Shown piece by piece: positions 22,268 through 33,373 of a stretch of 64,000 nt of DNA; positions within the stretch are counted from its first letter, which is position 1; every line of letters starts with the position of its first letter. A program made the translations under genes and the position numbers. The stretch is from Syntrophales bacterium (lineage in GTDB: Bacteria; Desulfobacterota; Syntrophia; Syntrophales; UBA2210). Location: the NCBI GenBank assembly GCA_963666365.2, contig CAXXNF010000002.1, forward strand, positions 576,001 through 640,000, written 5' to 3'. The notes under the pieces are model-generated. The model made no database searches, was not told the DNA's origin, and saw only the letters and a list, made by a program, of their open reading frames with translations.

Positions 22268-23659
22268 CTACAAATGAATCGCCCGGTTTTCTCCCGCCCG
22301 CGCCGTTTCCATCAGCATTTCGGAGAGGGTAGGGTGACCGTGCAGCATCTGTGCCATGTCCCTTAACTTCAGCCCTCCTGTTTTTGCCAGGAGCGCTTCA
22401 TGGACCAGTTCCGTCGCCTCGGCGCCGACAATGTGTGTGCCGAGGATTTCTTTCGTTTCTTTGTGGAAGATGAGTTTTACCATTCCTTCAACATTGTCGA
22501 GGGCAACGGCTTTTCCTGAAGATCTGTAGGGGAACACTGCCTTTCCGTAGGGTATGCTCTGTTCCGCTGCGTCCTTCTCTGTCATGCCGAATCCCCCTAC
22601 CTGGGGCTCGCAGTATATTCCGTAGGGGATTTCATCATGTTTGATTCGCGCTTCCGGCTGATGCCCGGCAATGTATTCAACGGCGGTTTCGCCTTCCTTT
22701 GATGCAACATGGGCGAGAAGGGGGGTATTAATCACGTCGCCGACGGCAAACACGGTGTCGACAGTGGTTTTGTAATAATCCCCCGTTTTTATGAACCCCT
22801 TTTCACATTCAACACCCAGGCGTTCAATGCCGATGTCTTCAATGTTGGGCGATCGTCCTACCGCGACGAGAATTTTTTCTGCGCTTAAGCGAGACAGGTT
22901 CCCCTTTCTCTCAAGGGTCACTTCACAGTGTCCGTTTTTGAATTGATAATCCACCATCTGTGCACTGACATAGGTTTCGATGTTGTGCTTCTTGAACACC
23001 CTTTGCAAAACCTTTGTTATTTCGGCATCACCCTGCGGAAAAAGACTGTCGAGCATTTCGACGATTGTCACATTGACCCCGAAAGAGTTTAAGATGTAAG
23101 CGCACTCAAGACCAATTGCTCCTGCACCCAGAATAATAATGCTTGTGGGGAGCGTTGTTAATTTGAGTATGCCCGTGGACGACAAAACACGCTCTTCGTC
23201 TATGGTGAGTCCCGGCAGGTCTTTCGGTCGTGATCCCGTGGCGATTATGATATTTTTTGCGGTGATTTCATCGGTATCGTCAATGATAATTTTGTTTGTT
23301 CCGCTAATTGTTGCCTTTCCCTGAATAAAATTTACCCTGTTCTTCTTCAGAAGAAACGACACGCCCTTCGAAAGCCTCTCTGCGGCCGTCCTCGATTTCT
23401 GATGCACCATCTCGTAATTGAACCCGGAGGTATCGGCCCTTACCCCCATGTGCTCAAGACCGGGCAACGAATTGTAAATTTGTGCCTGATTGATAAGCGC
23501 CTTAGTGGGGATGCACCCCCAGTTCAGGCACACGCCGCCCAGTTCGCTCTTTTCTATCACCGCTGCCGTGAGCCCGAGCTGGCGCGCCCTGATGGCGGCG
23601 ACATATCCGCCGGGTCCCGATCCGATGATTGCGATGTCGTAGTGATATTCCATTGACAT
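22268..23659 (-). CDS. lpdA: Dihydrolipoyl dehydrogenase
   Basis: GSGPGGY, GGVCLNWGCIPTK, GAGAIG, HPTLSE. Confidence 0.93.
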   Translation of the reverse strand: MSMEYHYDIAIIGSGPGGYVAAIRARQLGLTAAVIEKSELGGVCLNWGCIPTKALINQAQIYNSLPGLEHMGVRADTSGFNYEMVHQKSRTAAERLSKGVSFLLKKNRVNFIQGKATISGTNKIIIDDTDEITAKNIIIATGSRPKDLPGLTIDEERVLSSTGILKLTTLPTSIIILGAGAIGLECAYILNSFGVNVTIVEMLDSLFPQGDAEITKVLQRVFKKHNIETYVSAQMVDYQFKNGHCEVTLERKGNLSRLSAEKILVAVGRSPNIEDIGIERLGVECEKGFIKTGDYYKTTVDTVFAVGDVINTPLLAHVASKEGETAVEYIAGHQPEARIKHDEIPYGIYCEPQVGGFGMTEKDAAEQSIPYGKAVFPYRSSGKAVALDNVEGMVKLIFHKETKEILGTHIVGAEATELVHEALLAKTGGLKLRDMAQMLHGHPTLSEMLMETARAGENRAIHL

Positions 23660-24056: not shown

Positions 24057-25934
24057 TTACAGGAATATGACCGCCCACAGAATGAGAACGGCCAGCAGCA
24101 GGCCGACGATGAGGCTCGCCAGTCCGAATGCGGAGGCGGCAAGTTTTGTTGCTATTCCAGGATGTTCCCGCTTCAGATCGGCCAGTTTGCCTTCGGATAG
24201 AAGCCTCTCGTAGTGTTCCCGCTTATCTTCGTACAGTTCGTGAAGGGTGATTCTTCCCGTGAAGATGGTTCTGTCCATGGGGAATTTTTTCGGAATCAGG
24301 TGGGTATTGAAAAAATGCACCGTAAATATGAACAGCGCCGCCAGCAGCGCTTCCTCTGAATGCAGAAGGGCGGCCACATTCAGAACCCAGCCGGGGAACA
24401 GGTAGGAGGTCCATTCCGGGACCATGAGAAATATTCCTGACCCTCCTATGACCACCATGCCCCAGAAGACGGCGAGAAAGTCGAATTTCTCCCAGTAGGT
24501 CCATCGGTCAAATTTCGGCTGGTCCCCCCGGTTGAAAAACCATTTGAACATCCCCTTCATATCCTGCCAGTCTTTTAGATTGAAAAAGAGAGATTCCCTG
24601 CTGAACAGGCGTGTCAACCACCCGCTCCTTCCTTTACCGTTCTTTCTGAACAGGTAGCGGACAGAGCGCACCAGAATGTAGAAAAAGAGGGCAAAGAGGA
24701 GTAGCGCGGCAACTCGATGAAAGATGCCCGCCATATGCACGCCGCCCCATATGTCAATGAGAATTCTCGCCCAGGGAGCCTCGTGGTATTTCAGGGGAAA
24801 TCCCGTCGCTACAAGGGTCAAGAAGGATATCACCAGGATAATGTGGACAACAATGTCTTTTGTGGAAAAACGTTCAATTGATTGCAGACTTTCACTGTCG
24901 GACATGGGAAGGTGCGGTGTAATTCCCATTTTTTCCATATAGTGTTTGTCCCAGTAGGTTTTGCGCCACCAGAGGAAGGCGTGTATCCAGAAAAAGAGGA
25001 ATGTTGCCGCCAGAAGTCCGATCATGAAGACATTTGTCCAGTATAACGAGGGATAGCGCTTCCGGTTGCTGAAATCGGGGTGTGCCTGGTAGGCAACAAA
25101 GCGGGGATGGAAGCCGCTGTGGCACTTCCCGCAGTTTTCCACCAGGTTGCCGGGGTGAATCGATGATTCCGGGTTGTCTTTCGGAAGAATGTTGTGCGAT
25201 GTGTGGCAGTCGGCACATCCTGCAACCCGTGTCGGATTTCCGATGTCCTGGACTTTGCCGTGATACGTCCTTTTATAGGCGGCAACCGTCAAAGTGGAAA
25301 GATCGTTCCGAATCATCATTTCCGGGTCGTTGTGGCAGCGAATGCATGTCCGGGTGTAAAATTCCCGTGCCTCGGCGGGATATTCCTGCTGGGACGTATG
25401 ATACACATGGGTGCTGTGAAGTCCATGACAATCGGAGCAGGTTGCCGCATCTTCGTTTCCCTTCGCGACGGCCATGCCATGACCTGAATGGGCGTATTCA
25501 TCGTTGGAATGACACTCGGTGCATTGGTGGAGCGTTGCCGATTTAATGGATGCCTTTCGGGGCTGCACGGCGTGGATATTGCGATGACAGTCATAGCACT
25601 GAAAATCCTGATGCAGATAGTGATAATTGTGTAGGTATTCTTTCGCAATTTCGTTATGGCAGCTTCCGCAGGCCACAAGGGTGGATCGCGTCGTACCCGT
25701 CATGTGTCTCTCGATATCGGTGATATCGCTATGACAACTGACACATCCCTGGGCGCCGTGCACCGAGGCGGGGTAGGCGGTTCGATACAGGTAATCATCA
25801 TGACAGGAGAGGCAATTGACGGAAGTCGTCGCACCGGGATTGGTGTCACTGCGCTGTGTCTTCACTGAAGCAGAGGCCTGAGTGAAAATGCAGACCAGGA
25901 TGACTGCCACTGCAGTGATGAGGGAATAACGCAT
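24057..25934 (-). CDS. Nonaheme cytochrome c fused to a cytochrome b membrane domain (CbcL-like)
   Basis: Signal peptide; 9 CxxCH (CLSCH, CVSCH, CGSCH, CYDCH, CTECH, CSDCH, CIRCH, CADCH, CGKCH); TM domain with TGFPLKY, YWEKFDFLAVFWG, HSEEALLA, HFFNTH; GGAGG RBS. Confidence 0.88.
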   Translation of the reverse strand: MRYSLITAVAVILVCIFTQASASVKTQRSDTNPGATTSVNCLSCHDDYLYRTAYPASVHGAQGCVSCHSDITDIERHMTGTTRSTLVACGSCHNEIAKEYLHNYHYLHQDFQCYDCHRNIHAVQPRKASIKSATLHQCTECHSNDEYAHSGHGMAVAKGNEDAATCSDCHGLHSTHVYHTSQQEYPAEAREFYTRTCIRCHNDPEMMIRNDLSTLTVAAYKRTYHGKVQDIGNPTRVAGCADCHTSHNILPKDNPESSIHPGNLVENCGKCHSGFHPRFVAYQAHPDFSNRKRYPSLYWTNVFMIGLLAATFLFFWIHAFLWWRKTYWDKHYMEKMGITPHLPMSDSESLQSIERFSTKDIVVHIILVISFLTLVATGFPLKYHEAPWARILIDIWGGVHMAGIFHRVAALLLFALFFYILVRSVRYLFRKNGKGRSGWLTRLFSRESLFFNLKDWQDMKGMFKWFFNRGDQPKFDRWTYWEKFDFLAVFWGMVVIGGSGIFLMVPEWTSYLFPGWVLNVAALLHSEEALLAALFIFTVHFFNTHLIPKKFPMDRTIFTGRITLHELYEDKREHYERLLSEGKLADLKREHPGIATKLAASAFGLASLIVGLLLAVLILWAVIFL

Positions 25935-25967
25935 CGGTCCTCCGATCGTCAAGGTTCCGCCGTTCAT

Positions 25968-26729
25968 CTATTTTATCCTTTTCTTGAAGGATCGCCAGTC
26001 GCTCATTCCACCAAACAGGCGCTGTATGTCCACCAGACCCCGTTCATAAAGGTAGCATGCGGCAAGAAAAGACCGGTGCCCCTGTTCATCCACCACAATT
26101 ATTTTCTTGTCCATGGGCAGTTTCCGGTAGGTGGCTTCGAGTTCATCGAGAGGACGGTTGATTGCGCCGGGGATGTGGTCTTTTTCGAAAAGATCCCTGG
26201 ACCGGATGTCAAGGATCAGGATGTCCTTCTTTTCGTTGATCCAGCGGTTCATCACTTTCGGTTTTATCGATTCGATTCCCACCCGGGGAATACGCGTTTC
26301 GGATTCAACGCCATACCCGCCTTCCTTCCAAGCGGGCAGGCCGCCGTCTAGGATATACACGTTTTGATAGCCAAGCTCACGGGCCTTACGGGCTGCGTGC
26401 ATACTTCGATGACACCCGATACTTGCACAGTAGATAATGAGCGGTTGGTCCTGATTTTGTATCATCTCGGGCGCCCTTTTTTCGAATTCCGGGCAGGGAA
26501 TACAAAGAGAACCTGGTATGCGGTGATCCCCGCATTCAATGGCACTCATGGTGTTGATGAAAAGGAGATCGTCTGTTGCCTGCATCATCCGGTGCGCTTC
26601 AATCGCCGTGATCAGCGGAGGTGTCTCCTCCGCGGCGATTGAAATGCCGGTTGCGGCGAACATGAAACACCACAGCGCCATAACCGCCCGCACGAGCACC
26701 CACTTATTTTTTACCGTCGGTGATTTCAT
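25968..26729 (-). CDS. Exported tandem-domain rhodanese (sulfurtransferase)
   Basis: Signal peptide; domain 1 HRIPGS...YCASIGCHRS...LDGGLPAW; domain 2 HIPGA...VDEQGHRS...LFGGMSDW; exact start uncertain. Confidence 0.85.
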   Translation of the reverse strand: MKSPTVKNKWVLVRAVMALWCFMFAATGISIAAEETPPLITAIEAHRMMQATDDLLFINTMSAIECGDHRIPGSLCIPCPEFEKRAPEMIQNQDQPLIIYCASIGCHRSMHAARKARELGYQNVYILDGGLPAWKEGGYGVESETRIPRVGIESIKPKVMNRWINEKKDILILDIRSRDLFEKDHIPGAINRPLDELEATYRKLPMDKKIIVVDEQGHRSFLAACYLYERGLVDIQRLFGGMSDWRSFKKRIK

Positions 26730-28728
26730 CGGGTATGGGCACCTCTCTAAAGCCCCACTGGTACATCTGCGGTTTCGCATTCGGTTCCCTGGGGGTCGGG
26801 TAGTCTTCGACCAGGAAACGCCCGGGATTTGTAACCAGCATCTTCGTGAAAAAGGTGGATGTATCGGAATGACAGTCGTAACATCCTTCCGGTTTCCCCT
26901 TCGATCCGTAAGTCTTTCCTATATCGATGGGCACAATATTATGATGAACGGGAAAATTATGCGGATGAGCTGCGAGATGATCCTCATAGGTTGCCACGGC
27001 GCCGTCCTTCAGTTCGTAGATTTTGTCGGATACGAAGACCACGTTGCGGAACCCCATCTTTGTCAGCGCTTCGATCATCGTCTTGATCGTGTCATCCGTT
27101 GCGATGGTGGGGCGTGTGACCGCCTTGCCGGTGATATCCTTTACCTTCGCAAGAGTGGCGGTATTGAGACTCTCGTAAGCCTTTTTTACGTACTTGAGGA
27201 TGATCGGCCGGATTGCCATATTGTCCATCTTTTCACCGAACCACTGGGCAACTTTCGGAACAACGGGGATGTACTGTTCTCCGAGGCCGTTTCGCGCATC
27301 GTATCGGGTAATCCATGGTGCCCAGGGCTCCGGTGTAAGAATACCGAAATCGTCGCTCCAGGTGATGGTTTCCAGGGTACCCGCCGTGTACCAGACCTGC
27401 TTTCCCATCGACATGTCAAGCAGATATCCCGACATGGCCGGTTGTCTCGTAGAATGGCAGTTGGCACAGCTGATCAGATCGAAATGGAACATGGCGTCGG
27501 GGAATTTTTCTTTGTGAGTCTTCGTTGGATTTTTCGCCTCTTCCGGCATGTCCGGCCGCGTCGCCTGATATTTTCCTTCCAGATGGCACGCCGCACAGGT
27601 TTTCATCCCCACGCCGTCGAGATCATCACGCACGCTGCCCATCGGATGCCAGCCCTTTGCTATCTGATGTTCCAGGCGCTCTTTCTCGGTTGTTCCCACC
27701 AGGCTGTGACAGTCGGTGCATTGGAGCCCCGCCTTGTAATGGGCGTCATATTCCGGTTTGTGGACCCATCCGACTTTCTTCGCATCAGGTCCTTTGTGAC
27801 ATTGCAGACAACTTTTCGTTTCAACCGCCTTCGATATCACAGTGCCACGGAATCGGCCTTCCCTGGTAAAGATATTCCGATCATCCCAGTTGTAGGTGAC
27901 GGTCGGCCGTTCCGAAAAATTCCAGGTGCCCCTGAGAAAATCCTTTGATCCCGGGCCGGCGTCATTATCGGCATACGTGAAAATTGCGCCTTTGATTTTT
28001 CCGAGAACGGCGCCTGCCGTGGCGGCCCACCGGTAATTTCTCTTGTTGAGCTGCTGATTGCGGGCCCCGAAGCTGTACTCTTTCATGTGGCAGAGGAGGC
28101 AATCGGCTTCTACGACGCCGCTCTCCTTGAAATGACTCCTGCCGTCAGGGGTGAGATTTGACGTATAGTCTCCGTCAAGAGGATTTACGTTACGGCGCTC
28201 ACCTTCGATGAGATTCATGGAATAATCGGGGGCGCCGTCCCATTTTCTGCCGTATTCCATGGATGCGCCTCCGGGATGACACCATCCGCAGGAGGTTGAT
28301 TTTATTTTTTTTGCAGGATTTAATTTCCCGTAGCCACCGATCCAATCGTAGGCGGACAGGTCAATTTGCTTCGGATCATCGTTGTTTTTGCGGGCAACAC
28401 GGCCTGACCTGGTTGCAGGGGGTCACCACTTGCCGTACATGCCCGGCGATAACAGCCAGGGCTGCCTCGGGTTATACGTGTCGCTCATCTCCATGAAGCC
28501 CTGCTGGAAATGAAACCCCGAGGAAATAGTTGAGTAGGGATGACATCCGCCGCATGTCCTGCGAGGACTGTAGGGATCACCCTGATTCCTGTCCTGCGTG
28601 ATCTGTTCTCCCCGCTCGTTTTTCAATTTTACATCACGGTGAATTTCGGTTTTTGCGGATACTGAAGAATAGATAAAAACAATGGAAAAAACTGCGGCAG
28701 CTACTACAGACACCAACTTAGGTTTCAT
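26704..28728 (-). CDS. Putative selenocysteine-containing octaheme cytochrome c, tetrathionate reductase (OTR)-like; UGA at 28425-28423 = residue 102 of 674
   Basis: ORFs 28423-28749 and 26704-28260 share a frame; the 54 codons between them are stop-free and include CGWCH; total 8 CxxCH; signal peptide; CAGGAGG RBS before ATG 28728. Confidence 0.8.
28394..28416 (-). promoter_or_regulatory. Candidate SECIS hairpin of the octaheme cytochrome
   Basis: Starts 6 nt after the UGA: GCAAC-CA-GGU-CAG-GCC-GU-GUUGC; weaker than the fdnG SECIS. Confidence 0.45.
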
Positions 28729-28810
28729 GAAGGCCTCCTGTCGGCACATTCAAGTTTAATCATTGGAGTAAGTAACCACATGCATCGGTAAGGCATTGTC
28801 AGTAGCCTCC

Positions 28811-28838
28811 AGTATACTGATTTCATGAGTTAGGTCAA
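28811..28838 (-). promoter_or_regulatory. sigma70-type promoter for the cytochrome operon
   Basis: Minus strand TTGACC-16 nt-TATACT about 85-110 bp upstream of the start. Confidence 0.55.
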
Positions 28839-28927: not shown

Positions 28928-30268
28928 TTAGCGCGGGGCGCCCCCGGAATCCGCAATGTGCCTGCTGATGCCTCGTACTGTCTCCATGGCTGCAGTGATG
29001 TCGATGGTGCGAATAGTGCGATCTTTCATGATCACTTTCCCGTCGATGATTACCGTGGAGACATCCGATCCCGATGCCGCATAGACGACCTGCGAATAGG
29101 GGTTGTAGAGGGGCGTTAGATGGGGCTGATTCAGGTCGAGAAGGATGATGTCGGCCTTCTTCCCCGTTTCGATTGATCCGACGATGGGCTCAAGACCAAG
29201 CACCTTCGCTCCTCCTACGGTGGCCATTTCCACGACGGTTTGTGCATCCATCACCGTGGGATCAAGGGCTGCCACCTTGTGAAGCCTAGCCGCGGCGCCC
29301 ATCTCCCGTATAAGATCGAGATCGTTGTTGCTTGCACATCCATCGGTGCCCAGCCCCACCGTGATGCCCTGTGTAAGCATTTCAGGAATTGCTGCAATGC
29401 CGGCAGCAAGCTTCATTGAGCTTTCCGGATTGTGAGAGACTTTTGTGTCATGATCGGCCATAATGGACACTTCTTCCTCGTCAAGCCAGTTGCAATGTAC
29501 GGCCACCGTGTGTTCGTCCAGAACGCCCAGTGTATAAAGGTGGCGAAGCGGCGTGTTTCCGTAGCGTTCCTTAATATCGCTCACTTCTTCCTGCGTTTCC
29601 GAAAGGTGGGTCATAAAGAGCGTATTGGACCGGCGTGCGACTTCCTTGATGTCCTGATATGTGGCAGGTGAACAGGTATAGGGCGCGTGGCAAAAGAGGG
29701 CAGGGGTGATAAGGGGCGATGCTGCCCGCCAGCGGTCGATAAAGGCTTGAGCGACCTCCATATTTTTACTCGGATCAGGATTCCCCGGCGCCGGAAAATC
29801 GGTAAATCCCGCGCAGACCACACCGCGCATTCCCGATTCGACGGCTGCGTGAGCGATGCTTCCGGGGTAGAAATAGGCGTCGCAAAACGTTGTTGTTCCC
29901 GAAAGGATCATTTCGGCGATGGCAAGCCGGGCGCCGGCACGGCAGAAATCCCTGTTCACAAATGCGGCCTCGGCGGGGAAAATATGATTTGTAAGCCACT
30001 CGGTGAGGGGCAGATCATCAGCAAGTCCCCGAAAGCAGATCATTGGAAGATGCGTGTGGGTGTTGACAAGACCCGGCATCACAAGCGATCCGCGGGCGTC
30101 GATCGTCTCCTTGGCTGTGGCAGCGGTGCGGTGGGCGTTGGCGCCGCCCACAAAGACAATCCTGCCGTCTCGAATGCCGACATCGCCGTTTTCTATGATG
30201 TCTCTGTCATTTGAAATTGTGAGAATCAGGCCTCCGTGGATCAGAATGTCAAGTGCAGTTTCCTCCAT
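28928..30268 (-). CDS. Amidohydrolase, MtaD-like (methylthioadenosine/SAH deaminase family), copy 2
   Basis: PGLVNTHTH, HAPYT, HLSET, AVHC, HNPESSMKLA, GTDGCASNN. Confidence 0.85.
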   Translation of the reverse strand: MEETALDILIHGGLILTISNDRDIIENGDVGIRDGRIVFVGGANAHRTAATAKETIDARGSLVMPGLVNTHTHLPMICFRGLADDLPLTEWLTNHIFPAEAAFVNRDFCRAGARLAIAEMILSGTTTFCDAYFYPGSIAHAAVESGMRGVVCAGFTDFPAPGNPDPSKNMEVAQAFIDRWRAASPLITPALFCHAPYTCSPATYQDIKEVARRSNTLFMTHLSETQEEVSDIKERYGNTPLRHLYTLGVLDEHTVAVHCNWLDEEEVSIMADHDTKVSHNPESSMKLAAGIAAIPEMLTQGITVGLGTDGCASNNDLDLIREMGAAARLHKVAALDPTVMDAQTVVEMATVGGAKVLGLEPIVGSIETGKKADIILLDLNQPHLTPLYNPYSQVVYAASGSDVSTVIIDGKVIMKDRTIRTIDITAAMETVRGISRHIADSGGAPR

Positions 30269-30277
30269 GCCGGCCCA

Positions 30278-31600
30278 TTACTCCATGTTTTTTTTGATCC
30301 GGTCCGCGATCTTTCTGACACGGCTCATGCAGAGCGTTTCGTCGATGGTGAGAAGCGCCCGCTTTTCCATCACAAGTGTTCCGTTAATGATGACGGTGTC
30401 GACATCGCTTCCGTTCACGGCGTAGACCAGATGAGAATATTCATTATACATGGGGGTGAGGTGTGGTTTATTGCAGTCGATTATAATCACATCAGCCTTT
30501 TTGCCGGTCTCCAGAGATCCCACGAGGTTCTCCATACCAAGCACCTTGGCCCCGTTGCAGGTGGCCATGCGGGTGACTGTTGCGGCGGACATGACAGTAG
30601 GATCGAAGCGCACCACTTTTTCAAGCTTGGCCGCTGTATCCATTTCCTGAAACATGTCGAGGTTGTTGTTGCTGGCGCAGCCGTCGGTACCCAGTCCCAC
30701 GCAAATGCCGTGATCCAGCATACTCGAGATCGGTGCAACACCGGAGGCAAGCTTCATGTTACTTTCCGGGTTGTGAACTACTTTGCACCCGTGATCTGCA
30801 AATATGCGGATATCTTCCTCATCCATGGTCACGCAGTGAAACGCAAAAAACCGCTCATCGAGAAGCCCGAGTTCTTCGAGAAATCGCGTGGCCCGTTTCC
30901 CCAGCTTCTCGTTGAGCTGCAGCAGTTCCCCCTTGTTTTCCAGGAGATGCGTCGCCAGAGGCGCCTGATACTCGTCAGCCAGGATTTTTGATTTTTTCAA
31001 GAGATCACTGGAGCAGGTATAGAGCGCATGCGGTTCAACCACGATATTCACCAGAGGATCATCGGCCCACTTTTCAAAGAGCATCCGTGTGTAACGAAGT
31101 CCCTCCTCCGGCGACTTGATGTTGGGCGAGGGAAAGTCGAAGAAGACCTCTCCCAGAAGGCAGCGCATACCGGCCTCATGGGCGGCGCGGGCCGTTTCGT
31201 CCTCAAAGATATACATGTCGCAAAAAGTGGTGGTTCCCGATTTTATCATTTCGGCGCAGGCAAGCAGGCTTCCCCAGTAGGCCAGTTCAGGATCAACGTT
31301 TTTTGATTCGGCGGGGAATATATAATTATTAAGCCAGTCCATCAGTTCCATGTCATCGGCAATTCCTCGAAAGCAGGTCATCGCAGCATGGGTGTGCGCA
31401 TTGATGAGACCGGGCATGACCAGACATCCCGAGGCATCAATAATTCTTTTTGCATGACTATTGTTCAGGAGTTCGCTCGATTTTCCTAACGCGACTATTT
31501 CATCACCCTTGATGGCAAGCGCACCCTCAGGTATTCGAGTATCACTTTTGTCAACCGTGAGAATTGTTCCGTTTGTTATGAGTATATCCGCTTCGATCAT
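30278..31600 (-). CDS. Amidohydrolase, MtaD-like, copy 1
   Basis: PGLINAHTH, PHALYT, HLLEN, HNPESNMKLASG, GTDGCASNN. Confidence 0.85.
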   Translation of the reverse strand: MIEADILITNGTILTVDKSDTRIPEGALAIKGDEIVALGKSSELLNNSHAKRIIDASGCLVMPGLINAHTHAAMTCFRGIADDMELMDWLNNYIFPAESKNVDPELAYWGSLLACAEMIKSGTTTFCDMYIFEDETARAAHEAGMRCLLGEVFFDFPSPNIKSPEEGLRYTRMLFEKWADDPLVNIVVEPHALYTCSSDLLKKSKILADEYQAPLATHLLENKGELLQLNEKLGKRATRFLEELGLLDERFFAFHCVTMDEEDIRIFADHGCKVVHNPESNMKLASGVAPISSMLDHGICVGLGTDGCASNNNLDMFQEMDTAAKLEKVVRFDPTVMSAATVTRMATCNGAKVLGMENLVGSLETGKKADVIIIDCNKPHLTPMYNEYSHLVYAVNGSDVDTVIINGTLVMEKRALLTIDETLCMSRVRKIADRIKKNME

Positions 31601-31974: not shown

Positions 31975-32062
31975 GCCTGGGTGGCGGAACTGGTAGACGC
32001 AAGGGACTTAAAATCCCTCGGTCCTTGCGACTGTGAGGGTTCGATTCCCTCCCCAGGTACCA
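31975..32062 (+). tRNA. tRNA-Leu (anticodon TAA)
   Basis: Acceptor GCCTGGG/CCCAGGT, D-loop GGAACTGGTAGAC, anticodon arm AGGGA-CTTAAAA-TCCCT, long variable arm, GGTTCGATT, encoded CCA. Confidence 0.97.
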
Positions 32063-32067
32063 TAAAA

Positions 32068-33159
32068 TCAAGGGGTTACGGCTTTTAGGGTTGTAACCCT
32101 TTTTATTGGAATTGGCCGATTGTAACCATTTTGTAACTGTCCAGATTGTCTTTCTCTGAATTCTTGCCTCTTTCTAGCGGCTTCCTTCAGGTCGTCCTGT
32201 GAAACGATGTTGTATCGATCAAATACACTTCGAGTCTTATGACCAGAGATTTCCATCACGACACGTTCAGGTATACCCGCTCTCACCATGTTCCTGATGG
32301 AGCTTCTCCTCAAATCATGGAAAAGGAGATCCGGCATGCCAATGGTGGTGCAGGCTGTCTCCCATGCCTTACGAAAATCAACCAATTGTTTTCCCTTATG
32401 GTGGAAGACATAGAGACAATCCATGCGCCGCTTTTTATATAGTTTCTTCACCATTTCCAGCAACTCAGGTTCCATGTAGAGCGTTCGGCCTTCTGTATTT
32501 TTCGTCTCTCCCGGTTCAAGCCTTACAGTTCCTTCACGCAAGTCAACCTGACTCCACTTCAGATTGATTATTTCCCCCTTTCTCCAGCCTGTAAAGTAAC
32601 CAAATGTAAGGACAGTCCTAAGATGCACAGGGAGCTCTTTCATGAGGGCCAGATATGCTTCATACTCTATAAACCCTTTCCTAACATTGTTTTCCTTTAG
32701 CATCGGGATATAGGGCACCTGTGCTACTTTGGGAGGCGTACATCGGGCAGCCAAGTTAAAAGCCCTCTTGAGAGCGGCCAATTCCCTGTTGATTGTGGCA
32801 TTCGATTTTCCTTGGACCAATCTGTTCTCAATATACTTTTTGATTAATGTTGATGTGATCTCCGGTGCTCTCATGCCACCAAAATACTCTTTGAGATATC
32901 TGGTACACCGCTTCGCCTTCTCCAGTGTCCTCTTTCTATTGACTCTGTAATCGGTGAGGTAATCATCCATTATCTCATCAAAAGTTATTTTATCAAAAAC
33001 GATCCCAGGCATTTTACCGGTAGAAATCTCACCTTCTCTGAGCTTTAATAAGTGTTTAGCAACTTCCTGTTTGTTACTATGACTCGATTCGGCATAGGCC
33101 TTGCCGTTCCTGTAATACTTGACCCAGTAGGTATTTCCTCGCCTGTAAATACATCCCAT
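32068..33159 (-). CDS. Tyrosine recombinase (phage integrase family)
   Basis: GWRKGEI, TKN, FHDLRR, SGHKT, DRYN catalytic residues; start 33159 or 33168. Confidence 0.95.
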   Translation of the reverse strand: MGCIYRRGNTYWVKYYRNGKAYAESSHSNKQEVAKHLLKLREGEISTGKMPGIVFDKITFDEIMDDYLTDYRVNRKRTLEKAKRCTRYLKEYFGGMRAPEITSTLIKKYIENRLVQGKSNATINRELAALKRAFNLAARCTPPKVAQVPYIPMLKENNVRKGFIEYEAYLALMKELPVHLRTVLTFGYFTGWRKGEIINLKWSQVDLREGTVRLEPGETKNTEGRTLYMEPELLEMVKKLYKKRRMDCLYVFHHKGKQLVDFRKAWETACTTIGMPDLLFHDLRRSSIRNMVRAGIPERVVMEISGHKTRSVFDRYNIVSQDDLKEAARKRQEFRERQSGQLQNGYNRPIPIKRVTTLKAVTP

Positions 33160-33160
33160 C

Positions 33161-33373
33161 TTAGTCATCTCCTTTCTCGGGATGGTTTCGCTTGACCAGC
33201 TGAAGGTCATAGCCAAGGTAATCGGCAATCTGTTCTAGCTTTTTCAGGGAGATTGATGTTTCCCCCTGGAAAAACTTTGACAATTGGCCCTGATCAATCC
33301 CTAGATCCTTCCAGAGCCTATATGCCGTGACCTTTTCCCTATTCATGATGTCTTTCAGGCGATTCCCCATCAT
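33161..33373 (-). CDS. XRE/Cro-like HTH regulator
   Basis: TAYRLWKDLGIDQGQLSKFFQG...LEQIADYLG; start could be 33412. Confidence 0.75.
   Translation of the reverse strand: MMGNRLKDIMNREKVTAYRLWKDLGIDQGQLSKFFQGETSISLKKLEQIADYLGYDLQLVKRNHPEKGDD

Follow-up and report, generated by a model that had tools for sequence, protein, structure and literature searches.

The window analysed here, a stretch of 64,000 nucleotides from a Syntrophales bacterium, contains on its minus strand a gene for a putative multiheme cytochrome c selenoprotein (26704..28728), followed on the same strand by genes for a rhodanese and a CbcL-like protein. Read from 28728 to 26704, the cytochrome gene forms a single frame of 674 codons that is stop-free but for one TGA (28425-28423), which, when read as selenocysteine (Sec, U), supplies residue 102 within the motif GKW-U-PP, conserved in relatives. 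Translation table 11 divides this frame into two open reading frames, 28749..28423 (108 residues, or 101 from the ATG at 28728) and 28260..26704 (518 residues). The joined product carries eight CXXCH heme motifs: CGGCH (residues 59-63; 28540..28554), CGWCH (residues 147-151; 28276..28290), CLLCH, CLQCH, CTDCH, CAACH, CANCH and CYDCH. The first is invariant in alignment A3 and in the superfamily alignment A4, and the second falls in the stretch from the TGA to the downstream ATG (M158), which receives no call under table 11. Apart from these motifs and position 102, the octaheme protein has no cysteine.

The N-terminus, MKPKLVSVVAAAVFSIVFIYSSVSA/KTE, was judged by eye from the sequence to be a signal peptide (residues 1-25; 28654..28728), whereas the downstream piece begins MEYGRKWDG, without one. 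A Shine-Dalgarno sequence, AGGAGG (28734..28739), stands 5 nt before the ATG at 28728. In the upstream intergenic region there is a promoter-like TTGACC-16-TATACT (28811..28838), although this is a consensus match only and the count of such sites in the region does not exceed that of shuffles. The original prediction for this locus had described a stop-free read-through of the TGA into a heme-bearing gap, the same eight motifs, and a signal peptide and strong ribosome-binding site on the upstream piece alone, all of which we recovered.

A search of 5.8 billion proteins yielded 418 relatives, many of them ~665 residues long and covering 94-99% of the joined protein. The closest relatives (65-85% identity) are only 514-553 residues long and are recorded as truncated ‘hypothetical proteins’, because they were called from the downstream ATG alone. 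The DNA of relatives was taken from two sets, genome contigs (5 loci confirmed) and metagenome contigs (106 confirmed, 80 kept). Among the genome contigs, an in-frame TGA occupies the same column, again as GKW-U-PP, in all four loci that include the site; these are 69-85% identical to the window and come from Syntrophaceae, Syntrophales and Desulfomonilia metagenome-assembled genomes. Within the order, the cytochrome was found in 91 of 339 genomes and 28 of 72 genera (E ≤ 1e-30), with exactly one internal TGA in seven of those genomes, this one included, and a TGA plus a TAG in two more.

Residues 100-102 and the heme-2 motif were tabulated for 71 sequences (the window, L001-L004, L014-L078 and L091). 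The window and ten loci have KW-U together with C[GA]WCH, four loci have KG-U with CGWTH, and nine have [KM]G-C with CGWTH. Another 44 loci lack Cys at the site, are one residue shorter there and have CG[WSA]CH at heme 2. The three that remain are L055 (KGF with SGWMH), L073 (KPR, its heme-2 motif not parsed) and L075, unreadable at residues 100-102. In 14 distant loci (~30% identity) the same column holds Sec once (L082, its TGA verified at the nucleotide level), Cys five times, Tyr four times and other residues four times. Cysteine thus occupies the column in nine plus five loci, and it does so in 12 database proteins as well (P0030 and P0031 with KWC, ten with [GDA]C).

In a 67-row tree, every core-family member with Sec or Cys falls into one 20-row clade (Sec 11, Cys 7, other 2; Shimodaira-Hasegawa approximate likelihood ratio test 97), and the Sec label requires at least three to four changes. 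In seven comparisons, the 55 codons that separate the TGA from the downstream ATG have accumulated 17-28 synonymous versus 5-15 non-synonymous differences, similar to their flanks; against L002, the counts are 28 synonymous and 11 non-synonymous codon differences. Because the TGA recurs in independent assemblies and is followed by a stretch with a synonymous excess, it is beyond chance, and the compared sequences indicate that it is not an error. Homologues had been expected to show Cys or TGA at position 102 with conservation on both sides, and they do so in loci from three clades. Rather than being unique to this genome, with Trp, Arg or Gly in its homologues, the TGA is present in 15 other loci and alternates with Cys. 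A TGA of another kind was seen in a distant relative on a 1039-nt metagenome contig, where it takes the place of the second heme-1 Cys (CGM-U-H; L089:512-514). This could be Sec within a heme-binding motif or a sequencing error, the latter because it comes from a single short contig.

Were the TGA a genuine stop, the locus would encode a 101-residue monoheme protein and a separate seven-heme protein of 518 residues from the ATG at 28260, as in the table 11 calls and the public records of the closest relatives. The 518-residue piece, however, would lack a signal peptide yet need periplasmic heme attachment, and the 55 codons skipped between TGA and ATG hold a conserved CXXCH and are under purifying selection. 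Full-length homologues, with Cys or without a stop, are collinear across the join, and the TGA is conserved in the 15 other loci of the three clades. Even though the weakness of the window's own selenocysteine insertion sequence (SECIS)-like hairpin, described below, sits well with termination, we regard a genuine stop as extremely improbable.

The genome (4.0 Mb in two contigs) was searched for the genes of Sec incorporation and has the complete set, with tRNA-Sec (76 bits), SelB (361), SelA (608) and SelD (383) all above curated cut-offs. The SelD gene (G000:C1:483557-484486, plus strand; L103) itself has one in-frame TGA inside, and its product is therefore a Sec-type SelD.

From 17 nt after the UGA, the cytochrome transcript contains a SECIS-like hairpin, CAGGC-CGUGUU-GCCCG (28391..28406, minus strand), with four of five pairs formed in the window and an A.C mismatch at the other. 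RNAalifold, applied to 12 unique Sec-type sequences, gives a single consensus helix of 5 bp (columns 20-24/31-35 counted from the U of UGA) with the loop CGUGYN. One pair covaries, being C-G in eight sequences, U-A in three and A.C in the window. All five pairs are present in nine of the 12 Sec-type sequences and at least four pairs in every one, versus all five in none of eight Cys-type sequences, in which the same SGRVA peptide is encoded, and none of 39 without Cys. The hairpin of L082 differs, with 7 bp and the loop AGUU, and begins 12 nt after its UGA. It is plausible, judging from this pattern, that the hairpin serves as a minimal SelB site.

The same observations bear on whether a near-cognate tRNA could instead decode UGA-102 as one of the standard amino acids (Cys or Trp). 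Such decoding would be compatible with the modest SECIS evidence and with the fact that Cys works at this position in relatives. It is nevertheless very improbable, since the genome has complete Sec machinery including a Sec-type SelD, Cys codons are the only alternative to the TGA within the Cys/Sec clade, and a hairpin complete only in TGA-bearing genes would be hard to account for otherwise. Most likely, the two called open reading frames are one mis-annotated gene encoding a genuine selenoprotein. The proposal of a hidden selenoprotein split by gene callers therefore holds up, given the conserved TGA, the Cys homologues, the Sec machinery and the truncated records of the closest relatives.

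In Pfam and NCBIfam, the protein finds nothing beyond generic multiheme matches below or near cut-off, with no NCBIfam model above its cut-off. TIGR04315, the model for octaheme tetrathionate reductase (OTR; cut-off 375 bits), matches neither the protein at E ≤ 1 nor the gene in a genome-wide search at E ≤ 10, and NF040886, the ExtKL/MccSep model, does not match the octaheme gene. Several routes to a solved structure were tried and set aside. The protein sequence finds only NrfB in the PDB (E 0.03) and the profile of alignment A1 nothing relevant, while the superfamily profile (A4) finds NrfA weakly (8bcx, E 2e-6; 6v0a, 0.002) and never 1SP3. When A4 was compared by hhalign with an N-terminal piece of the OTR paralogue in this genome, the match reached 32% probability in the wrong register, and therefore gives no residue-level mapping of Sec102 onto OTR.

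An AlphaFold2 model, built from a 95-sequence alignment, has a mean predicted local distance difference test (pLDDT) of 85.1 and a predicted template modelling score of 0.84, whereas residues 81-110, which include Sec102, have a pLDDT of ~50. In a Foldseek search of the PDB with this model, the sole match at E ≤ 0.001 is 1SP3, the octaheme cytochrome of Shewanella oneidensis (E 4.5e-5, probability 1.0), with TM-scores of only 0.26/0.37. A VIA search, run independently over 48,161 chains, likewise returns 1SP3_A (Z 10.7, root-mean-square deviation 4.1 Å, 329 of 436 residues, model range 28-668) as the only match above Z 5, the runner-up having Z 3.6. An inserted α/β domain spans approximately residues 437-593 of the predicted model. 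By this model, the protein has the OTR fold; because the fold matches 1SP3 and neither TIGR04315 nor NF040886 matches, it lies outside both curated families. The description ‘OTR-like’ in the original prediction is thus upheld at the level of fold, by 1SP3 as the sole significant match in two structure searches, but not at that of sequence or profile, where TIGR04315 finds nothing at E ≤ 10. A distant clade (L079-L087; ~30% identity, 810-870 residues, e.g. L082:2384-4975) has an OTR-like octaheme domain fused to a C-terminal multi-helix membrane domain, which takes the place of the adjacent CbcL-like gene; L082 also has Sec at the residue-102 column.

OTR reportedly employs seven His and one Lys as the ligands of its eight hemes, and its segment between hemes 1 and 2 reportedly supplies an active-site Cys as well. 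In the superfamily alignment here, seven non-motif His are conserved, with H73, H330, H354, H415 and H596 invariant and H30 and H405 present in at least 90% of sequences, and there is one invariant Lys, K114 (28387..28389, minus strand). Sec102 precedes K114 by 12 residues. K114 precedes heme 2 by 33 residues in the window and by 19 in L079, L088 and L093, the shortest relatives, as compared with 18 in OTR, so that K114 is, by spacing only, a candidate equivalent of the OTR heme-2 ligand. That ligand is Lys56, in a heme bound by C74xxC77H78 (PMC3769277), which bears out the Lys that the original prediction had named for this segment of OTR.

The TIGR04315 genome search at E ≤ 10 matches one locus only, C1:117305-118655 (minus strand; L104/L105), a true OTR-family gene that scores 338 + 191 bits in two pieces. 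Its frame, too, contains a TGA in the segment from heme 1 to heme 2 (GK-x7-U-x9-CTRCH), eight residues after a conserved Lys, which itself stands 18 residues before CTRCH, just as Lys56 of OTR stands before Cys74. This paralogue is further interrupted by a TAA in frame and by a frameshift within a run of G, and hence is either a pseudogene or affected by assembly errors.

Heme 2 is the only one whose CXXCH motif varies in the family, and its variation follows residue 102. Among the database proteins, those with a canonical CxxCH at heme 2 lack Cys at 102 in 58 cases and have W-C in two. Those with Cxx[T/I]H have Cys at 102 in nine cases, to which P0023 is added, and those whose heme-2 motif has no Cys at all have Gly, Phe or Thr. 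In the rows lacking the second heme-2 Cys, the presence of Cys or Sec at residue 102 goes strictly with retention of the first (48/48). Judging from the alignments, residue 102 is by this coupling linked in function to the heme-2 site. Together with the invariant K114, the co-variation is the sole, and indirect, support for the original proposal that Sec sits at the catalytic heme, where it may act as nucleophile or ligand.

A more specific proposal is that residue 102 is bonded at heme 2, as an axial selenolate, through a Sec102-Cys147 selenosulfide or by a covalent link to the heme. Bonding would fit the finding that loss of the second heme-2 Cys (Cxx[T/I]H) always goes with Cys or Sec at residue 102, and loss of both motif Cys never with Cys there (48/48). 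A catalytic residue serving heme 2 would, however, be expected to show such co-loss just as much, and three events are too few (p = 0.25). Furthermore, the window clade has a canonical CGWCH, and therefore no vinyl group or partner Cys is free. Bonding is unlikely on present evidence. In its fullest form, the proposal would make Sec102 part of the innermost sphere of heme 2, by coordination or by covalent bond, with selenolate ligation as Lys/Sec or His/Sec and with a Sec/Cys102-Cys147 pair replacing or tethering heme 2 in the Cxx[T/I]H lineages, a version that we likewise hold to be unlikely. If true, such a selenolate sphere would be a catalytic centre not yet described, and the hydrogen- and formate-dependent syntrophs would have a quinol-linked sulfur or selenium respiration that needs no molybdenum.

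Downstream of the cytochrome gene, and overlapping its 3′ end with its start, is the gene for a periplasmic tandem rhodanese with its own signal peptide (25968..26729, minus strand). Domain 1 keeps the YC cysteine, whereas domain 2 has Asp there. At the active site, the loop CASIGCHRS exceeds that of a usual rhodanese by two residues, and alignment A5 of the rhodanese reveals two further invariant Cys (ECxDH..PGSxC) that are kept where the YC cysteine is lost. The next gene (24057..25967, minus strand) encodes a CbcL-like protein with nine CXXCH motifs followed by a membrane domain. The latter has only a weak match to TIGR01583, formate dehydrogenase gamma (cytochrome b), at E 3.4e-5, with no curated model above cut-off. 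A tblastn search of 85 loci (E ≤ 1e-5) matched the rhodanese in 54 and the CbcL-like gene in 57, many loci ending before the neighbours. The rhodanese YC cysteine is kept in all 11 Sec-type and all seven Cys-type loci with a readable rhodanese, and is lost only in some lineages without Cys102 (KWL, AWL, SWL, GWL and part of NWS). On these gene orders, the cytochrome, the rhodanese and the CbcL-like gene are a conserved three-gene module.

A lipoamide-dehydrogenase-like gene (22268-23659) was considered as a further member and placed outside the module, being weakly conserved and found at one locus only. Directly upstream of the cytochrome gene are two paralogous amidohydrolase-family genes (28928-30268 and 30278-31600, both minus strand), neither of which was found beside the cytochrome in related loci. 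Further upstream, a tRNA-Leu(taa) (31975-32062, plus strand) abuts a phage-type integrase gene (32068-33228, minus strand), likely marking a mobile-element integration site ~3 kb upstream of the cytochrome operon.

Together, the data suggest the following mechanism. UGA-102 would be decoded as selenocysteine by SelA, SelB, SelD and tRNA-Sec, probably aided by the hairpin 17 nt downstream. The product would be a ~72-kDa periplasmic cytochrome c with eight hemes, the OTR fold and the inserted α/β domain. The CbcL-like nine-heme/cytochrome-b protein would pass electrons from menaquinol to the octaheme cytochrome as the terminal enzyme, and the periplasmic rhodanese, through its active cysteine, would most likely bring or hold the substrate as a persulfide. 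We infer that the loop joining hemes 1 and 2 places Sec102 beside a catalytic heme 2 ligated by Lys114, as in OTR. There Sec102 could act as a nucleophile on a sulfane sulfur or other chalcogen, be it polysulfide, persulfide, thiosulfate/tetrathionate or selenite, and the resulting Se-S adduct would be reduced through the heme chain to sulfide, by analogy with MccSep. Taken whole, this account (one gene, UGA-102 as Sec, an octaheme OTR-fold protein as the terminal enzyme of the module, and Sec acting on a sulfane-sulfur or chalcogen substrate) is in our view probable.

The selenoprotein might instead be real but act on a non-sulfur substrate, such as nitrite or hydroxylamine, on the pattern of OTR and NrfA, or an oxyanion of selenium or tellurium, or be a mere carrier of electrons to an extracellular or partner acceptor. 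The superfamily profile does weakly match NrfA nitrite reductases (8bcx, E 2e-6; 6v0a, 0.002), and members without Cys/Sec, some with a Cys-less rhodanese, keep the module; moreover, CbcL of Geobacter serves extracellular electron transfer (PMC9129911). On the other hand, the adjacent rhodanese retains its active Cys in 18 of 18 loci whose cytochrome has Cys or Sec, and Sec beside a heme has its precedent so far in a polysulfide reductase (PMC13510729). A substrate other than sulfur, or a carrier role, is rather unlikely, and action on a sulfane sulfur or chalcogen remains our preferred reading.

Several observations weigh against this reading and its parts. The selenoprotein is known here from genes and a predicted model alone. 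Its substrate is a guess from neighbours and analogy, and OTR itself, going by the title of Atkinson et al. (2007), reduces nitrite and hydroxylamine as well. No sequence or profile method, be it the PDB, NCBIfam or hhalign comparisons, connects the family to OTR. At a pLDDT of ~50 in the Sec loop, the model cannot place residue 102 relative to any heme. Neither Cys nor Sec occupies the site in 44 of the 71 tabulated sequences and in 58 database proteins, and the fold therefore works without them at residue 102. The co-variation with the heme-2 motif amounts to three independent co-losses (sign test, p = 0.25).

The hairpin, too, has its weaknesses. A fold downstream of the TGA had been anticipated, and what emerged is a conserved 5-bp hairpin complete only in Sec-type sequences, but with a stability in the window not above that of shuffles. 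The 50 nt after the window's UGA have a minimum free energy of −8.4 kcal/mol (z = +0.47), a value equalled or bettered by 137 of 200 shuffles. With its A.C mismatch, the window hairpin is the weakest of its clade. Over the 51 nt after the site, minimum free energies do not discriminate between Sec-type (−13.0), Cys-type (−13.7) and Cys-less sequences (−15.3). Finally, since the hairpin overlaps the conserved peptide SGRVA, its conservation stems partly from coding.

Multiheme selenoproteins are already known, as MccSep (2026) and as Sec-OTR annotated in GenBank. No earlier description of the octaheme family was found in the literature, where MccSep, the table of the selenoprotein review and genome papers without a bearing on it were all that came up, the supplementary tables of PMC13510729 and PMC13188914 being outside the search. 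The family is absent from the cytochrome and heme entries found by term search in the available part of a 2026 review of prokaryotic selenoproteins (PMC13188914), and the accessible part of a 2006 selenoprotein inventory lists no cytochrome for Syntrophus. Experimental proof of a multiheme cytochrome selenoprotein dates only from 2026, with MccSep, and the octaheme family would be a further and structurally unrelated case. By analogy, the module may carry out a quinol-driven respiration that reduces a sulfur compound in syntrophic bacteria, and its quinol oxidase and sulfur-carrier partners point to an unrecognised respiratory electron outlet in the syntrophs of digesters and sediments. The natural series of Sec, Cys and neither at one site, coupled to one heme motif, offers ready variants for examining the role of selenium in heme catalysis.

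The protein resembles OTR (1SP3, TIGR04315) in carrying eight c-type hemes on one periplasmic chain, in having 1SP3 as its only significant structural match, and in a conserved Lys of the first inter-heme segment, a candidate heme-2 ligand that in the shortest relatives stands about as far from heme 2 as in OTR. Sec or Cys in the segment between hemes 1 and 2 is likewise shared with the OTR family, as exemplified by the genome's own TIGR04315 paralogue, with its TGA eight residues after the Lys. Sec-containing OTR members are described as ‘GenBank annotated’ in the available part of the selenoproteome review (PMC13188914). There are also differences. No sequence or profile similarity to OTR is detectable, the protein is ~230 residues longer and has the inserted α/β domain, Sec stands 12 residues before the conserved Lys rather than eight after it as in the paralogue, and its gene is consistently accompanied by those of a rhodanese and a CbcL-like quinol oxidase.

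MccSep/ExtKL of Geobacter sulfurreducens (GSU2937-2936) is a multiheme selenoprotein polysulfide reductase, assigned to a new family in 2026, in which Sec325 and the heme-ligating Cys239 reduce polysulfide (PMC13510729, on whose available portion this comparison draws). Like the protein here, MccSep is a selenoprotein among the periplasmic multiheme c-type cytochromes and is divided by gene callers at its UGA. It shows Sec/Cys alternation, a SECIS-like hairpin and a Pro after Sec; its cluster also has a rhodanese (ExtH), going by the title of a reference only. It may thus serve as a working model for attack by Sec on a chalcogen substrate beside a heme. The main differences lie in architecture: MccSep has five hemes, with Sec325 following them in a C-terminal Ig-like domain, whereas the protein here has eight, with Sec near the N-terminus between motifs 1 and 2. 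Whereas the conserved Cys239 of MccSep ligates heme 2, there is no conserved non-motif Cys here, and the folds are unrelated, NF040886 giving no match. For the partner at 24057-25967, the closest known counterpart is CbcL (GSU0274) of Geobacter sulfurreducens, which combines a nine-heme c-type periplasmic domain with a membrane domain of the cytochrome-b type (PMC9129911). The CbcL-like protein resembles it in its nine CXXCH motifs and, by the weak TIGR01583 match, in its membrane domain, but is dedicated to an enzyme-like octaheme partner rather than to carriers of the PpcA type.

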